From IMG/VR virus record IMGVR_UViG_2937164673_000001: a stretch of 20,000 bases of DNA. One strand, written 5' to 3'. A program made the position numbers and the translations under genes. The notes beneath the pieces were generated by a model that was given only the letters and a program-made list of their open reading frames with translations, was not told where the DNA came from and did no database searches. Origin of the DNA: an uncultured virus (IMG/VR IMGVR_UViG_2937164673_000001) (taxonomy: Duplodnaviria > Heunggongvirae > Uroviricota > Caudoviricetes). Shown piece after piece: positions 2,836 through 19,415 of the stretch (positions within the stretch are counted from its first letter, which is position 1; every line of letters begins with the position of its first letter).

Positions 2836-2930
2836 AGATATCGTTGATGAGGAGCAACGCAGTTGCGACCCATTAATAAATCACACAGATCAAATGATCA
2901 CTTCAACATTTCAGGAGTAATCCTGATTAT

Positions 2931-3003
2931 GGACCTATAGTTTAACTGGATAGAACAGTAGTCTTCTAAACTACCAACCTTGGTTCGAGTCCAAGTGGGT
3001 CTA
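2931..3003 (+). tRNA. tRNA-Arg (UCU)
   Basis: GGACCTA/TGGGTCT acceptor, anticodon stem gtagt/actac with loop cTTCTaa, T-loop GGTTCGAGTCC. No encoded CCA. Confidence 0.9.
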
Positions 3004-3005
3004 TC

Positions 3006-3143
3006 GCGAAGAGTGGAAAGACAATAGTGCATTTTGGAAGTACACACTCCCTATATCTTTTAAGTTGATAATACAAATACACCTTTCTAATTTTTAATCA
3101 TCCATGTTTGTCTTTTACAGAGGTTCGACTCCTCTGCTTCGCA
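3006..3143 (+). ncRNA. tRNA-like RNA: acceptor stem + T arm with a ~105 nt insert replacing the D and anticodon arms
   Basis: GCGAAG/CTTCGC+A, T arm agagg-TTCGACT-cctct, inner stem gtggaaagacaa/ttgtcttttac. Confidence 0.7.
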
Positions 3144-3169
3144 TAGGGCAGAAATGCCCGAAATTATTA

Positions 3170-3263
3170 AACATTTATGTGCTGTGTTTGATAATCGAAA
3201 ATTGTTATTTTTTTATCACCTTCTTTTTGTTAACACACTGCGGTTCGATTCCGTTTTGTGTTA
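3170..3263 (+). ncRNA. Second tRNA-like RNA with an inserted stem-loop (weak acceptor stem)
   Basis: T arm gcgg-TTCGATT-ccgt, aacat/gtgtt acceptor-like pairing, inner stem tgtgtttgataa/ttgttaacaca. Confidence 0.5.
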
Positions 3264-3371
3264 TTCCCAGCTAAGTGGTTGGGCTGGGGAACTCCTTTCA
3301 TGGTTAAGCACCTCCGAAATATGAAAGATTGGTTAGTCAGATAAGATATGTGTGATCTTATCTTGACAAGT

Positions 3372-3440
3372 TTCGGTATAGCTCAATGGTAGAGCAACAT
3401 TATGTAGTGTAGATATGTGGTTCGATTCCCATTACCGAAA
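3372..3440 (+). ncRNA. tRNA-like RNA with collapsed anticodon loop
   Basis: Perfect TTCGGTA/TACCGAA acceptor and canonical D arm (gctc-aatggta-gagc). Anticodon arm acatt-ATGT-agtgt has only a 4 nt loop; T stem is bulged. Confidence 0.75.
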
Positions 3441-3592
3441 TTCCTAGAAATAGGTTGTTCCAAATGACGGAAAACGTTTGGAATGTAAAATCACCTAACG
3501 TATGTTCAATAGGTTATATTTTCCATATACCTTTACCTTTACATTTTTCAATTCGATCATTGTTATGTATTTGTTGAAATGCATAACAGGAT

Positions 3593-3675
3593 GCCTAGGT
3601 AGCGAAGTGGTTAAACGCTGCGGACTGTAAATCCGCCACCTTTTGGTTTCGGGGGTTCGAATCCCTCCCTGGGCA
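3593..3675 (+). tRNA. tRNA-Tyr (GUA)
   Basis: GCCTAGG/CCTGGGC acceptor, gcgga-ctGTAaa-tccgc anticodon arm, long variable arm, GGTTCGAATCC. Confidence 0.93.
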
Positions 3676-3711
3676 TTAAGAACTAATATGAAGAAAGGAG
3701 TAAGAGTGCAT

Positions 3712-4281
3712 ATGCCACTTAATGATGACTTAATTAGAGATATTCTGAAAAATGTTGCTATACATGGTGTAAAGGGGAATAACCTTACTAGCATCATAGC
3801 TGAACTTCCTGGATATTCAGAAAAGGCAATTTTGGAAACCCTTAACTGGATGGAAATAAATGATTTCATTGGTAAAACACAATTAGAAAACTACATTCTA
3901 TCTTATTATGGACGGTATGTGTTTGGAGTTATCGCCGATGATTCAGTTTGGGAATACGCAAAAAGCGAGTACACCAAACGAAATTGCAAAACATGGTCTT
4001 GGAGTTCTAAGGTTAGAATTGCCACTCAATACCTGAAAAAGTATGATCCTGAGGCTCCTGTAAAATTTGACTATTTGCCATATAAGAATGAGGAAAAAGG
4101 CACCTTATATTACTACAAAGATAAAGAGGGCAATAACATTCCTGCCTTTGGTGATTATAAGGGCGCATCGATTATGATTGACGACAAGAATGTTGATCGA
4201 GTTTTAGAGTTCTTTCCACAAGCTAAGAATAACTTATATGTGGTATATCAAGGTGTGGAATTCAAGATTAATAATGTTTAA
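3712..4281 (+). CDS. DUF2513-like protein with C-terminal extension
   Basis: SD AAAGGAG at ~3694-3700; start ATG 3712 or GTG 3706. LNDDLIRDIL...LSYYG...IADDSVWEYAK resembles the DUF2513 pattern as recalled. Confidence 0.6.
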   Translation: MPLNDDLIRDILKNVAIHGVKGNNLTSIIAELPGYSEKAILETLNWMEINDFIGKTQLENYILSYYGRYVFGVIADDSVWEYAKSEYTKRNCKTWSWSSKVRIATQYLKKYDPEAPVKFDYLPYKNEEKGTLYYYKDKEGNNIPAFGDYKGASIMIDDKNVDRVLEFFPQAKNNLYVVYQGVEFKINNV

Positions 4282-4294
4282 CCATTTAATGGTG

Positions 4295-4700
4295 AGAAGT
4301 AGGGTAGGACAGCAGGCGACCTAAGCCGCACGAAACTGTCCATGTTGCGGCAGGCAGTTTACTGAAAGTTCTTCTGCCAGTAAAATGATTCTTTTATAAA
4401 GTTTTTGCGTCTTTAAATTGCTGTTGTAACAGCGATAAGATAATAAACTTATTTATATAATCTGATTACGGCTCACGTAGGGCTTCGAAATACAGCATAA
4501 TTACCCACCTCGGTGTTCGTGTGAATACAAAAGAAATAGGTATGACAGATAAGAAAGAGGCTGTCTTGTTCAAGATTAATCAGATTAACGTGGAGCTTGA
4601 CTCCTTAATGGCTTGGGGCGAATTCGTCCTCGTGTTGATGTCTTTTGCTGACAAGTTTCAACCGTCACGTAAAAGCGGAAATGAAACGATACATGTATTA
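4295..4700 (+). ncRNA. Unassigned structured RNA(s): pseudoknot, long hairpin and multibranch domains
   Basis: ggacag/ctgtcc crossed by gccgca/tgcggc; 10 bp closing stem aatctgatta/taatcagatt (4459-4586); several more hairpins. Confidence 0.5.
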
Positions 4701-4708
4701 TGTTTGGA

Positions 4709-4763
4709 AGCCTTGTCTGATGGTGCCAGGAAGATTGATTGGGTTCGATCCCCAACAAGGCTA
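4709..4763 (+). ncRNA. Mini tRNA-like RNA (55 nt) lacking an anticodon arm
   Basis: Perfect AGCCTTG/CAAGGCT+A, D-like hairpin ctg-atggtgc-cag, T arm ttggg-TTCGATC-cccaa. Confidence 0.75.
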
Positions 4764-5018
4764 TTTCAGATAGTTCTTTATAGAATGGTCAGCTTAAGAT
4801 CGACTGAACTGTCTGAAAATGATTTGCCTAGTTATAGACCACATCTTCGCAATGCGAAGGTATCTACTAGAAATAGTAGTGATTAATCGCGGACAGAATT
4901 GCTAAGTTAATGTCCATCAAAAAGATATAAGCTCTAAGAGTAATCAGATTGATACTTAGCACAATCAACAAGCTCTTAACTTATCAGTTCACCATCTAAC
5001 GTTTCTGGGTGGATAACT
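4764..5018 (+). ncRNA. Unassigned structured RNA with an 8 nt loop-loop complement
   Basis: 13 bp stem tttcagatagttc/gaactgtctgaaa. Hairpin loop TGCTAAGT (4900-4907) is complementary to ACTTAGCA (4954-4961). Confidence 0.55.
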
Positions 5019-5020
5019 AT

Positions 5021-5092
5021 TGCCTTATCGTCTAATTGGTAGGACACGACTCTTTGGAAGTCGCAATGTTGGTTCGAGACCAGCTAAGGCAA
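5021..5092 (+). tRNA. tRNA-Gln (UUG)
   Basis: TGCCTTA/TAAGGCA acceptor, cgact-ctTTGga-agtcg anticodon arm, GGTTCGAGACC. Confidence 0.92.
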
Positions 5093-5094
5093 TT

Positions 5095-5212
5095 AACTTG
5101 ATAAATTATCCCTTCGCGGTGGCAAGGTTAGTGTCTCCACCTAAGTTTGCCGAGAATGGGCTGTTTACAGCGCACAAAGTGGAGTCGGTGCCATTCGGTA
5201 ATTTATCAAGTT
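5095..5212 (+). ncRNA. Unassigned ~118 nt structured RNA with kissing loops
   Basis: 16 bp closing stem aacttgataaattatc/ggtaatttatcaagtt encloses two arms whose loops carry CTCCAC (5135-5140) and GTGGAG (5179-5184). Confidence 0.6.
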
Positions 5213-5404
5213 TTGGTTCTAGTGTGCCGTCGCTAGAATTGTATTTCACTTAACGGAGCGGAGAGTAAATCCAGTATGTCCTTGGAAACATAGACTGTAA
5301 AACTGGTGTCTCGAAGTCAACACGAGGGTAGAATACCTGGTATTGTTGGCATGTGATAGCAGCGGGGTGTAGCTGCGAATATAAATAAATCACCTCTTTA
5401 TTAC

Positions 5405-5481
5405 ACTCCAGTAACTCAGTCAGGTTAGAGTGCACAACTTATAATTGTGAGGTCGCTTTGGTTCAAATCCAGCCTGGAGTA
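5405..5481 (+). tRNA. tRNA-Ile (UAU) with a 2 nt bulge in the T stem
   Basis: ACTCCAG/CTGGAGT acceptor, cacaa-ctTATaa-ttgtg anticodon arm, gc(tt)tgg-TTCAAAT-ccagc. Confidence 0.85.
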
Positions 5482-5494
5482 TTGCCATTATGGC

Positions 5495-5900
5495 AAAGAA
5501 CAATCCCTTTGCATTAAAGGTTACGACCGATCGCAGAGGTTTTATCGAGGGGTTATCACATCCCACTTGCTGACCTGAACAGTTTAATAAAATCAGGATT
5601 TTATAAAAGACAGGTACAATATTCGCTGACGGAACGTAGGCATGTGCGGAATCCGTGAGTGGGGCTAGGCTACGCCAACTCTCTATCGGTAGACAGTAGC
5701 AATTATGTCGGAGATAGGAATGAGTGATGTTAAGGTCTTGAAATGAGTCTCCCTTAACAAGAACATATCAAAACATTCAGCGAGTAACGACAGCGCCCCT
5801 TAGCAGGGATAAGGACTATGCCCATCCTATGAAGCTAGTAGGAATAAATGTGGAATAAGGCAAAAGCTGTTAGGGGTTCCACCAGAATAAATATTTTGAT
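5495..5900 (+). ncRNA. ROOL-like large structured RNA (compact, ~400 nt)
   Basis: Blocks I recall from ROOL RNAs occur in order: AACAATCC..TTGCA, TCTTGAAATGAG, ATATCAAAA, GAGTAACnACAGC, GAATAAATG..ATAAGGCAAAAGCTG..GGGTTC..AGAATA. Phage tRNA-cluster context is typical of ROOL. Boundaries approximate. Confidence 0.72.
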
Positions 5901-5908
5901 ATATAAGT

Positions 5909-5982
5909 AACACATTAGCTCAGCTAGGTAGAGCACTTACCGAAATGGTAAGAGGTCACAGGTTCAAATCCTGTATGTGTTA
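5909..5982 (+). ncRNA. Full-length tRNA-like RNA with non-canonical anticodon loop (nominal AAA)
   Basis: All four stems perfect (AACACAT/ATGTGTT, gctc/gagc, cttac/gtaag, acagg/cctgt). The loop CGAAATG lacks U33 and purine 37, and C32-G38 can pair. Confidence 0.8.
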
Positions 5983-6044
5983 TAGACTTCATTAAGAAGT
6001 CGATTTGAGTTATTATTTGGAGTTATGATTTAAAGCTCTATTCT

Positions 6045-6419
6045 GGGGTAGTTTATGGATTCGACAGTCAGACAAAGCCCTAAATACGACTTACGGAAGA
6101 TAACGCCGAAATACTTTCATTTAAATATAAAAGCAAATAACCATAGAGTTACAGCTTTAGCTGCCTAGCTTATAGGCACTTGGTTAATATCTTGATACCA
6201 GATAAGGATATTAACTATCATATTTCACCCCTCTGGTCTTAGTTCATGATTTGCTAGTTTGAGTGTGACTAAGTATTAAAACTAGCTAGACTAGGTAGTT
6301 TTTGGAAAATTACTATGTAACGTTCCCTAAGTCGAAAATTTAGAACATAGTCCTATTAAGTCTAAAATGTATTTGGAAACTGGTTTGGTTGGACACGGGT
6401 TCGACTCCCGTCTACTCCA
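6045..6419 (+). ncRNA. ssrA: tmRNA; tag (A)ANNHRVTALAA
   Basis: GGGGTAG...GGATTCGAC 5' end and GGGTTCGACTCCC-GT-CTACTCC-A 3' end with G3:U70. Tag reading frame 6133-6168 ends ALAA-TAG. Confidence 0.93.
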
Positions 6420-6421
6420 TA

Positions 6422-6549
6422 TTCACAACTCTTTCAGGTTGCGGGTTCGAGTCCCGTCTCCGGCACGTGATACATGGTCACAATAGTTGCCAGAGTAGCT
6501 CAATCCTATACTGCTAAAAGGTATACGGCAGAGCGGTCAGACTTGTGAA
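6422..6549 (+). ncRNA. Circularly permuted tRNA-like RNA (T arm and 3' acceptor strand precede 5' acceptor strand and D arm)
   Basis: AGGTT-gcggg-TTCGAGT-cccgt-CTCCGGC-A (6436-6465), 23 nt linker, GCCAGAG-TA-GCTC...GAGC (6489-6534). Closed by ttcacaa/ttgtgaa. Confidence 0.75.
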
Positions 6550-6766
6550 GAAGACGTGTATCCGTCTATAAATGGAAACGTGGCATCTAAGGTTACACCA
6601 CCGTTAATATGTAGCTGGAAGAGGGTAGCTCCCTCATTTGTTAGAAATTTCTTTTAGAAAACCATGGCGATTTAGGTAAACGTAGAACCTAGCTCCTATC
6701 CGTGTAATAAATTTGTGAGCTTAAAACAAGATCTTATGGAATGTTGGTGAGTGTACAAAGCCGACA

Positions 6767-6826
6767 GAGGTAGTAGTTCAATTGGTAGATCATGCTAGGA
6801 TGTGGGTTCGATTCCCATCTACCTCA
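6767..6826 (+). ncRNA. Mini tRNA-like RNA (60 nt) lacking an anticodon arm
   Basis: Perfect GAGGTAG/CTACCTC+A, D arm gttc-aattggta-gatc, 10 nt connector, T arm gtggg-TTCGATT-cccat. Confidence 0.8.
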
Positions 6827-6880
6827 TAGCTATAATTAGCGAAATTCTTTATTACGTATTTACAAACGAGACATACAAAT

Positions 6881-6925
6881 AAAGCGTCACTTTGCGAGAT
6901 TGGTTAGAATCTGGTGACGCTTTTT
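6881..6925 (+). terminator. Intrinsic terminator closing the RNA island
   Basis: aaagcgtcac / gtgacgcttt stem followed by a T-run. Confidence 0.7.
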
Positions 6926-6952
6926 GTATACAAAAATTTAAGAGGAGGAAAG

Positions 6953-7903
6953 ATGGCCGTGGAATTAACTTATCGTAAATTTCCTAAGATTTACCGTTTA
7001 GAGCAAGAAGAGGCAAACTCGAAGCATGAAGGAGTAGCCAGTCTTTTAGAACAGAATAAAGCAGGTAACTACTATGTTGCTACTGAAAAGATTGATGGTG
7101 CTAATAGTTGTATAGAGGTTCTTAAAAGGGACGGAAAAATTGACTTTGCAATTTATTCACATCGTCAAAGACTTAGTGAGGACAATACTTTGCGAGGCTT
7201 TTACGAATACGCACAAGAGGTCTTAATTCCAAAGTTAATGGAATTCTATAAGAATATTGACGAGGCACATGACTATCTCTATGGGGAATGGCTGGTATCT
7301 CATCGAGTTGAATATCAACAAAAAATGTACAACCATTGGTATTTCTTTAGTTTTTATGATGATCTATTCGGTCATGAATATAATTTCTTTGAACGTACTG
7401 CTTTTGCCGATCGAGTAGGGTTAAGACAGCCGAATGTAGTTAGTATGGCAAACTACACTTTAACCAAAGAAGATATCAAGACGATGGTTGGAAGATCAAT
7501 GATTACAAAGGAACCAGATCATGGTGAAGGAATAGTTATCGAATGTGATGGCGTTCGAGCAAAGGTAGTGTCTGATAAGTTTAAAGAAACTCGAAAGCAA
7601 AAGAAACCACAGCCATCTCAGACCGAAAGCGAGAAGTTCATTGATGAGACAATTACGGAAGCTCGCATTACCAAAATGATTGAAAAGTTTAAAGATGAAA
7701 ATCTTTTACCAGATGTAATTGATTTTGAACATTTTGGTGATATTGCTAGACCACTAGCCAATGCGTTGTGGAATGATGTCATTGAAGAAGAAGGCAGCAA
7801 TGCACCAGAATTGTTTGATGTGAAGAAGGCACGCAAACGATTAAATAAGATTATCTCAAAATATGTCCGAGAATTAATTGAAAATGAAATGATGAGTGTT
7901 TAA
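6953..7903 (+). CDS. ATP-dependent RNA ligase, Rnl2-like family
   Basis: Nucleotidyltransferase motifs: TEKIDGAN (I), LYGEW (III), GEGIVI (IV), AKVVSDKFKE (V). SD GAGGAGG before ATG 6953. Confidence 0.85.
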   Translation: MAVELTYRKFPKIYRLEQEEANSKHEGVASLLEQNKAGNYYVATEKIDGANSCIEVLKRDGKIDFAIYSHRQRLSEDNTLRGFYEYAQEVLIPKLMEFYKNIDEAHDYLYGEWLVSHRVEYQQKMYNHWYFFSFYDDLFGHEYNFFERTAFADRVGLRQPNVVSMANYTLTKEDIKTMVGRSMITKEPDHGEGIVIECDGVRAKVVSDKFKETRKQKKPQPSQTESEKFIDETITEARITKMIEKFKDENLLPDVIDFEHFGDIARPLANALWNDVIEEEGSNAPELFDVKKARKRLNKIISKYVRELIENEMMSV

Positions 7904-19220: not shown

Positions 19221-19309
19221 TATGCACAAAATGTGAAAATAAAGGTTAGCAATGCGATAATAAATGTCGCAAAGGCCAACATTAACATAAGTGCTTGGTA
19301 AGCGCTCAT
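19220..19309 (-). CDS. Putative holin-like type I toxin (29 aa; not in the ORF track)
   Basis: MSAYQALMLMLAFATFIIALLTFIFTFCA fits the MS..AL.LM.AF..F...LL family pattern. SD GAAAGGA; TGATATAAT at 19400-19408 (- strand). Confidence 0.8.
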   Translation of the reverse strand: MSAYQALMLMLAFATFIIALLTFIFTFCA

Positions 19310-19415
19310 GTGCCGATAATCCTTTCATAATGGTGAAGTCCATATGAACCACCTCCAGTCAGGAATCGGCCACCGTCCTTAAAACTTGCCTGCTCTAGTA
19401 TTATATCATACAGAT

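Follow-up and report, generated by a model that had tools for sequence, protein, structure and literature searches.

The closest described systems to the RNA gene analyzed here are the YrlA RNAs. Chen et al. (2014, PMC4201824) define them by nearness to a Ro60 gene (about 4 kb, same strand) and by a 5' GNCGAAN0-1G motif; with 22 bacteriophages given in that study, YrlA RNAs in Ro60-encoding phages are already known. The same study describes the YrlA of Mycobacterium smegmatis, which has a 7-bp acceptor stem, as cut by RNase P and CCA-tailed in vivo, whereas the Salmonella YrlA with its 6-bp stem is reported as not cut. According to Wang et al. (2018, bioRxiv 10.1101/312249) the domain of YrlA that resembles a tRNA has a tRNA-like crystal structure; its T and D stems are described as highly conserved, and an effector that binds to the elbow is predicted. 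The preprint also refers to the permuted tRNAs of Cyanidioschyzon merolae (Soma et al. 2007, via 10.1101/312249), in which RNase P and RNase Z later remove the intervening sequence.

We here report on a stretch of 20,000 nucleotides from an uncultured virus of the Caudoviricetes (IMG/VR record IMGVR_UViG_2937164673_000001), referred to as the window. Positions 6422-6549 are a real, conserved, structured RNA gene with a circularly permuted tRNA topology of the YrlA type. This conserved structure is kept by selection in a system without Ro60, and the gene is tRNA-shaped and non-decoding. For YrlA-like RNAs in Ro60-less phages we found no description in the literature, surveyed mostly at the level of abstracts.

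Genomic setting and architecture of the element

The window is a one-strand block of phage-type genes, with PnuC, glutaredoxin, an RNA ligase (PF09414, 6953-7903), an HNH endonuclease, a deoxynucleoside kinase and a nucleoside deoxyribosyltransferase. A cluster of tRNAs (2930-5983) is followed by a tmRNA and, directly behind it, by the element (Table 1), which lies in a stretch free of open reading frames. Close relatives of positions 6000-7000 were identified in a viral record of 54 kb (89% identity) and on contig C2 in the nearest genome; a blastn search of 5900-7000 against GenBank phages gave a tRNA in three Rhizobium phage records as the sole match. Two carriers bear names, the "Lactobacillus reuteri plasmid p53608_1" (138,515 bp) and a 124,216-bp contig of Limosilactobacillus ingluviei DSM 15946. 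According to the paper on p53608_1 this is a megaplasmid that bears phage remnants and tRNA genes, and 98.8% of its genes share one strand; the term "tmRNA" occurs 0 times in the main text of the paper. The gene table of p53608_1, which contains no RNA genes, has no listed feature at 100395-104640.

Table 1. Positions of the element, its parts and the neighboring RNA features in the window
Feature	Position	Strand	Remarks	Basis
tmRNA, phage-borne, one-piece, complete	6045..6419	+	tag ANNHRVTALAA*	ARAGORN; Rfam RF00023, 77.5 bits
TA spacer	6420..6421	+	separates the closing helix from the upstream tRNA-like 3' end	alignment and locus sequences
Closing helix, 5' strand	6422..6435	+	occupies the anticodon-stem position	sequence, folding, pair counts, RNAalifold
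AGGTT	6436..6440	+	variable-loop position (tRNA 44-48); unchanged in 9/9 sequences	
T arm	6441..6457	+	stem GCGGG 6441-6445 / CCCGT 6453-6457; loop TTCGAGT	
Acceptor 3' strand CTCCGGC (6458-6464) and discriminator A6465	6458..6465	+		sequence, pair counts
Linker, 23 nt	6466..6488	+	closes the acceptor stem	sequence, folding, pair counts
Acceptor 5' strand GCCAGAG	6489..6495	+	pairs with 6464-6458	pair counts
U8/A9-like TA (6496-6497) and D arm	6496..6534	+	D stem GCTC 6498-6501 / GAGC 6531-6534	
G6535 (position 26) and closing helix, 3' strand	6535..6549	+		sequence, folding, pair counts, RNAalifold
Conserved 3' tail GAAGACGTGTATCCGTCTATAAAT	6550..6575	+	small hairpin 6553-6556 / 6563-6566	alignments
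Armless tRNA-like gene, 60 nt	6767..6826	+	missed by ARAGORN	Rfam tRNA, 45.7 bits
Terminator-like hairpin and T run	6881..6925	+	end of the noncoding RNA cluster; the ribosome-binding site of the ligase follows shortly after	by eye

Read from the sequence, the element consists of the closing helix, AGGTT, the T arm, the acceptor 3' strand with its discriminator A, the linker, the acceptor 5' strand and the D arm. The closing helix (6422-6435 / 6536-6549) has 14 positions in register, of which 11 are paired, and terminates in TTCACAA/TTGTGAA. Six of the seven acceptor pairs form, the mismatch being A6492.C6461 (pair 4), and the discriminator A6465 is followed by CGT rather than CCA. Within the linker a hairpin (GTGAT 6467-6471 / GTCAC 6477-6481) is conserved without compensatory change, and the last base of the linker, T6488, which is also a T in the relatives, occupies position -1 of a would-be RNase P site. 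The D loop comprises 29 nt and contains an inserted hairpin (TATAC 6507-6511 / GTATA 6521-6525) directly before G6527 and G6528, the equivalents of G18 and G19 of tRNA. The insertion point is between tRNA positions 17 and 18, which is where the natural length variation of D loops is located. All features named in the initial annotation, including the linker hairpin, the D-loop hairpin, the TTCACAA/TTGTGAA end and the six acceptor pairs, were recovered at their places, and the permuted order it had claimed, with the tRNA 3' half upstream of the 5' half, is borne out by the sequence and by the conserved fold.

By our own mapping to standard tRNA numbering the bases for tertiary contacts are all there (U8, A14, A15/U48, G18 G19, A21, G26, G46, T54-A58). 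The RNA of positions 6420-6550 is predicted to fold into the L-shape of a tRNA whose ends lie at the site of the anticodon loop and whose amino-acid end is sealed by the 23-nt linker. The pattern from T loop to D arm, GGTTCGANTCC-N30-50-GTAGCTCA, occurs once in the window and in 0 of 200 dinucleotide-preserving shuffles. A canonical tRNA was rejected as an assignment: neither ARAGORN nor the Rfam tRNA model RF00005 made a call at 6422-6549, and no standard-order cloverleaf with an anticodon arm was called by either.

The position of the element relative to its upstream neighbor is fixed. Its start lies 2 nt behind the discriminator A of some tRNA-like gene at all ten loci, with a constant junction A|TATTC; in the window the tmRNA discriminator A6419 is 2 to 3 bases ahead of it, and CCA is not encoded. 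The upstream gene is a tmRNA at seven of the ten loci, a tRNA at two (L179, L230) and a mini tRNA-like structure at one (L130). Because the upstream gene varies among the loci, it is a tRNA-type 3' end ahead of the element that is essential, and not the tmRNA itself. The upstream unit of L130 is neither a tmRNA nor a full tRNA; it is a short structure of T arm plus acceptor that ends in ...TTGGGGTA, and adds a third type to the reduced tRNA-like units of this group of phages.

Downstream, a weak terminator-like hairpin at 6621-6635 is deleted in two relatives. The terminator-like hairpin at 6881-6925 is strong and shows compensating stem changes in L179; it was unlisted by the terminator scan because its loop is above the limit of that scan. 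The noncoding stretch at 6570-6735 (+), located between the element and the armless gene, is a mosaic among the relatives, with its right half in two unrelated versions, and is deleted in L132 and L230. Two RNA-library runs have contigs that join this stretch to unrelated flanks, as if it were a mobile module.

Metatranscriptome contigs from four runs cover the tmRNA body and parts of 6547-6735 in all four. One X16 contig (6488-6735, depth 6.4) reaches the element and extends 10 letters into a linker of the relative type; in the other three runs 6423-6547 is without cover. Such contigs show neither ends nor strand nor level, their ends fall at strain-variable borders, and RNA libraries may contain DNA.

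Three further RNA features of the window are reported as side observations. The tRNA at 5908-5983 (+), called "Phe (aaa)" by ARAGORN and lacking an encoded CCA, has the anticodon loop CGAAATG, with G in place of U33 and T at position 37. This is odd for a phage tRNA; U33 is universal in tRNA anticodon loops. A tRNA at 3372-3440 (+) reaches 51.8 bits with Rfam and was missed by ARAGORN. On the minus strand, 19240-19415 gives a full-length match to the Listeria sRNA family rli28 (RF01492; 71.4 bits against a cut-off of 45 bits), here in an element whose named relatives are Limosilactobacillus.

Conservation and covariation of the fold

Pattern scans found the element in five viral contigs, four metagenome contigs and two named genome records. 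From their identical lengths and coordinates, the two named records were taken to be the same contigs as two of the viral ones, so that together with the window 10 loci with 9 distinct sequences were available. An earlier pattern, consisting of T loop and acceptor 3' strand, had been too general (122 stretches, nearly all ordinary tRNA 3' ends). With the pattern of the D-arm insert 19 stretches were obtained in viral contigs, five of them the known contigs and the rest unrelated, and no new family member was added. A parent tRNA with the same acceptor 5' strand was searched for in the nearest genome and three complete relatives, where only the element itself matched exactly.

Pairs were counted over the 9 distinct sequences and our structure of 35 pairs. 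At the true register 95.9% of the cells are paired, compared to 30-47% after a shift of the 3' partners by 1-3 columns. Both partners differ in six of the pairs, a number reached in 0 of 500 shuffles; the family is shallow, with essentially two lineages, and all six changes come from one split, that between the window and the rest. Three of these changes lie in the closing helix, where 3 of 9 counted pairs differ on both sides between window and relatives, and one each in the T stem, the acceptor stem and the D-loop hairpin. In the T stem, where all cells are paired, the window has GCGGG/CCCGU, while GUUGG with CCAGC or CCAAC is seen in the relatives. Pair 6509:6523 of the D-loop insert is U:A in the window and C:G in eight relatives. 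Covariation between 6458-6464 and 6489-6495, on which the initial annotation had made its reading depend, was found at pair 6462:6491 (pair 3), which is G:C in the window, A:U in four relatives and G:U in four. The A.C mismatch at acceptor pair 4 is invariant and unpaired in 9 of 9 sequences.

Folding calculations agree with this picture in part. Minimum free energy folds of two relatives yield the four-way junction unaided, with modest z-scores of -1.3 to -2.6. RNAalifold independently predicts the closing helix, the T arm and the D arm, the latter including its insert, as well as the top three of seven acceptor pairs; it misses the four lower acceptor pairs and pairs G6437-G6438 with C6460-C6461 instead. 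In the relatives, both MFE folding and RNAalifold allow the linker to lengthen the acceptor helix, and with such an extended helix RNase P would be hindered.

The conservation bears on two explanations that do without a function in trans. The element could be a decaying remnant with no present function, left by two neighboring tRNA genes or by a tandem duplicate whose outer halves are gone. It does sit in a tRNA array, and precisely this order would result if a tRNA gene were duplicated in tandem and the outer halves then lost, as in the origin model for permuted tRNAs. Against such decay, ten loci keep the element, with compensating changes in five helices and with all bases for tertiary contacts retained, while the flanks are reshuffled by another upstream gene, a deleted or swapped downstream part and another next open reading frame. 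We therefore give hardly any credence to a remnant.

It is also unlikely, if somewhat less so, that the element serves as cis-acting punctuation. Here the tRNA-shaped fold would draw RNase P and RNase Z, or block exonucleases, and a long noncoding transcript comprising tRNAs, tmRNA, the RNA of 6550-6766 and the armless tRNA-like gene would be cut or stabilized at fixed points, with its pieces having no function in trans. This would be in agreement with the abutment on a tRNA-like 3' end at all ten loci and with the location in an ORF-free stretch that ends at the terminator-like hairpin 6881-6925, and mammalian lncRNAs are described as using tRNA-like structures as RNase P processing signals (10.1101/312249). 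A mere processing signal would need neither the closing helix nor the D-loop hairpin nor the elbow contacts, yet these are conserved with compensating changes, and the element is retained in relatives in which the downstream region is mosaic or deleted.

Relation to YrlA RNAs and Ro60

A search with the YrlA covariance model (RF02553), suggested in the initial annotation as a check, aligned positions 6412-6564 of the window with 20.7 bits, below the gathering cut-off of 69 bits (E = 0.074 in a 521-base search). The alignment puts the T arm, acceptor and D arm in their correct places. With the same model 0 of 7 family loci gave a match at E <= 1. The element family is well outside the curated YrlA model.

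A scan of metagenomes with a pattern derived from the element returned 97 stretches. Many of these are tandem tRNA genes, and they include dozens of permuted modules with acceptor strands pairing at 6-7 of 7 positions. For 30 chosen candidate loci, open frames of at least 170 amino acids were translated (66 frames in 21 loci), revealing TROVE and/or Ro60-vWA domains at 10 loci (within 1.5 kb), RtcB at 3, Tpt1 at 1 and RlaP at 1. The 10 Ro60-linked loci served as controls; all match RF02553 at the site of the pattern (39-78 bits), and 2 of 10 reach 69 bits. As a pattern derived from the element retrieves Ro60-linked YrlA RNAs, the shared design is that of YrlA. A dense Y RNA/tRNA array was observed in the metagenome locus L188 (minus strand, 808-2000), with five RF02553 matches (78.3, 70.5, 62.4 and 37.6 bits being those listed) and tRNA genes between them, adjoining a Ro60-vWA ORF and an ORF for the RNA 2'-phosphotransferase Tpt1.

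The part of YrlA that is missing lies 5' of the tRNA-like domain. Between the upstream tRNA-like gene and AGGTT there are only 16-17 nt in the family compared to 45-60 nt in the Ro60-linked controls, where this stretch carries the Ro60-side strand and the V hairpin; 16-17 nt are too short for both. The motif GNCGAAN0-1G, the proposed Rsr contact, occurs in 0 of 10 family loci (+/-140 nt). Of the 10 controls, 3 have the exact motif and others have variants of it, which makes it a weak test. The architecture is that of YrlA's tRNA-like domain standing alone, without the Ro60-binding module.

As to Ro60 itself, the initial annotation had reported none in the window, and this holds for the 20 ORFs scanned for TROVE/Ro60. 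It had also advised looking elsewhere, and the outcome was negative throughout: no match to TROVE (PF05731) came from the two nearest records, from three of three CheckV-complete related phages, from a fourth, partial one, or from any of 301 sampled genomes (287 of high quality) of the family to which the nearest carrier genome belongs. As controls, Deinococcus radiodurans and Bacteroides thetaiotaomicron were positive.

The earlier proposal of a YrlA-like mimic is hence retained as regards topology and the bases for tertiary contacts and dropped as regards membership in YrlA, given the score, the missing 5' module and the missing Ro60. The shared motifs of the T and D arms are also generic tRNA consensus and thus do not establish common descent with YrlA. 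One may ask whether the element is a true Y RNA all the same, bound by an unrecognised Ro60-like or other ring protein of phage or host and tethering it to an exoribonuclease as YrlA does. The architecture is that of YrlA's tRNA-like domain, and the conserved 3' tail could bind a protein. With TROVE absent from the three complete relatives and from the 301 genomes of the host family, the motif found at none of the family loci and a 5' stretch too short for the Ro60-binding strand and the V hairpin, we regard a true Y RNA as quite improbable. A tRNA-like domain that occurs naturally on its own, in a phage and a host family without Ro60, separates the two modules of Y RNAs.

Decoding tRNAs, proposed maturation and possible role

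The initial annotation had further drawn attention to an RNA ligase 400 nt away and considered a two-piece or ligated tRNA-like RNA. The ligase ORF does start at 6953, about 400 nt downstream of the element, and its position is thus correct; a link to the element is not borne out. The ligase directly follows the RNA cluster in the window and in 2 of 5 relatives with a scanned downstream gene. By locus, the next gene is an RNA ligase in the window and L132, an RNA ligase with an in-frame TGA in L131, a deoxynucleoside kinase in L129, L144 and L186, and an HNH endonuclease in L179. One complete relative has the element and no PF09414 match anywhere, and in another the only match (23 bits) is about 26 kb away. 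The single in-frame TGA was observed in record G002 (36767-37261; the same contig as L131) and reflects either a broken gene or a sequencing error.

These data weigh on the idea of a permuted pre-tRNA, in which the phage RNA ligase would connect the two ends and the linker would be removed to yield a decoding tRNA as in the alga C. merolae. The order of the halves, the 7-bp acceptor stem and the nearby ligase in the window would fit. Joining the ends would leave a closing helix that is a rod of about 14 bp, with no anticodon arm and no 7-nt anticodon loop. When the halves were swapped in silico, as the initial annotation had proposed, no decoding tRNA emerged: ARAGORN at default settings called 0 of 10 constructs, and at relaxed settings 6 of 10, where the calls were inconsistent, with long "introns" and a total of three anticodons. 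RtcB (PF01139) was found in 0 of 3 complete relatives; as noted above, PF09414 is absent from one complete relative, weak and distant in another, and one adjacent copy has the in-frame TGA. No splicing endonuclease of the C. merolae type is known in bacteria. A decoding tRNA is therefore very improbable, and the ligated form is abandoned; the two-piece form has a published precedent in M. smegmatis.

A two-piece tmRNA (RF04321) was likewise rejected as an assignment. The element has no tag frame, no pseudoknots and no G3:U70, and the only RF04321 match, at 6392-6450 with 17.5 bits against a cut-off of 47 bits, spans the 3' end of the one-piece tmRNA. Alanyl-tRNA synthetase needs G:U at pair 3:70, where the element family has C:G, U:A or U:G.

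The second tRNA-like gene, at 6767-6826, was found downstream of the element at 10 of 10 loci. It has an acceptor stem, a D arm and a T arm, with about 4 nt in place of an anticodon arm, and CCA is not encoded. Two types with compensating acceptor stems occur (GAGGTAG/CTACCTC, and GGGGCGG or GGGTCGG/CCGTCCC). A second anticodon-less gene beside the element fits the idea that the phage makes anticodon-free tRNA bodies on purpose. As ARAGORN missed the element, the armless gene and one more tRNA here, phage tRNA clusters contain structured RNAs that are skipped by tRNA finders.

In our judgment the element is probably a Ro60-independent, anticodon-less tRNA mimic that is part of the tRNA/tmRNA transcript of the phage, with its ends probably set by the tRNA-processing enzymes of the host. 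The tRNAs, the tmRNA and the element would share one transcript. The 5' end of the element may be formed as host RNase Z, or an equivalent 3' processing enzyme, frees the upstream CCA-less tmRNA or tRNA. In Bacillota, RNase Z cuts CCA-less precursors after the discriminator; as the upstream gene is CCA-less, the 5' end of the element would arise at this cut.

RNase P could then open the acceptor stem at 6488/6489, where position -1 is U, and RNase Z or trimming could do so at 6465/6466; CCA addition would follow. A 7-bp acceptor stem, U at -1 and the lack of CCA after the discriminator are traits of RNase P and RNase Z substrates. Removal of the linker would give a two-piece, CCA-tailed mimic as for the M. 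smegmatis YrlA. Considering that the 7-bp stem of M. smegmatis is cut and the 6-bp stem of Salmonella is not, we put the chance of such a removal here at about even. A CCA-adding enzyme domain (PF01743) was found in 0 of 3 complete relatives; with neither this enzyme nor RtcB in the related phages, host enzymes would do the processing.

The mature RNA would not enter translation as a decoder. It would be a decoy, sponge or competitor that targets a tRNA-binding factor of the host by way of its elbow and acceptor region, and the element probably engages a reader of the tRNA elbow or of the acceptor end. Candidate partners would be processing and modification enzymes, the CCA-adding enzyme, translation factors and host enzymes that attack tRNAs during infection. 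The element represents a simple system for finding the predicted elbow effector, in a Limosilactobacillus strain that stably carries the replicon.

A wider reading, for now doubtful, is that large phages whose hosts lack Ro60 carry a class of free-standing tRNA mimics without an anticodon, which would be decoys or sponges for host factors reading the elbow or acceptor. Two such mimics would then be neighbors in the window, the permuted element and the armless gene at 6767-6826. Such mimics might hit, for instance, tRNA-directed anti-phage enzymes without disturbing decoding. If this were true, the tRNA-like domain of Y RNAs would have an effector function of its own for which Ro60 is not needed.

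Compared to known systems, the element resembles two-piece tmRNA in that its T arm and its acceptor 3' strand lie upstream of the acceptor 5' strand; there the intervening segment is removed. The element differs by a true D stem and by the lack of a tag reading frame and pseudoknots. With the permuted tRNA genes of C. merolae it shares the 3' half upstream of the 5' half and an acceptor end closed by an intervening sequence. The algal precursors, in contrast, are circularised by a splicing endonuclease and a ligase, which restores a normal anticodon loop, whereas the joined ends of the element restore none.

The likeness to YrlA (RF02553) extends over the permuted tRNA-like domain, with ends at the position of the anticodon stem, followed by the T arm, a closed acceptor-like stem and the D arm. 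The bases of the T loop, D loop and variable loop are the same, and tRNA genes adjoin the element as they do some YrlAs. Binding by Rsr and modification by TruB and DusA are further traits of the YrlA family. The element differs from YrlA in that it has no Ro60-binding 5' module, no V hairpin and no Ro60 gene in phage or host family, in the 21-nt hairpin inserted in its D loop, and in a T stem that is not fixed within the family (GCGGG or GUUGG). The M. smegmatis YrlA (Chen et al. 2014) in particular is encoded beside rsr and bound by Rsr, and its processing is described, while that of the element is our proposal. In M. smegmatis the RNase P cut and the CCA addition lead to two pieces that stay together, which is the route proposed here for the element.
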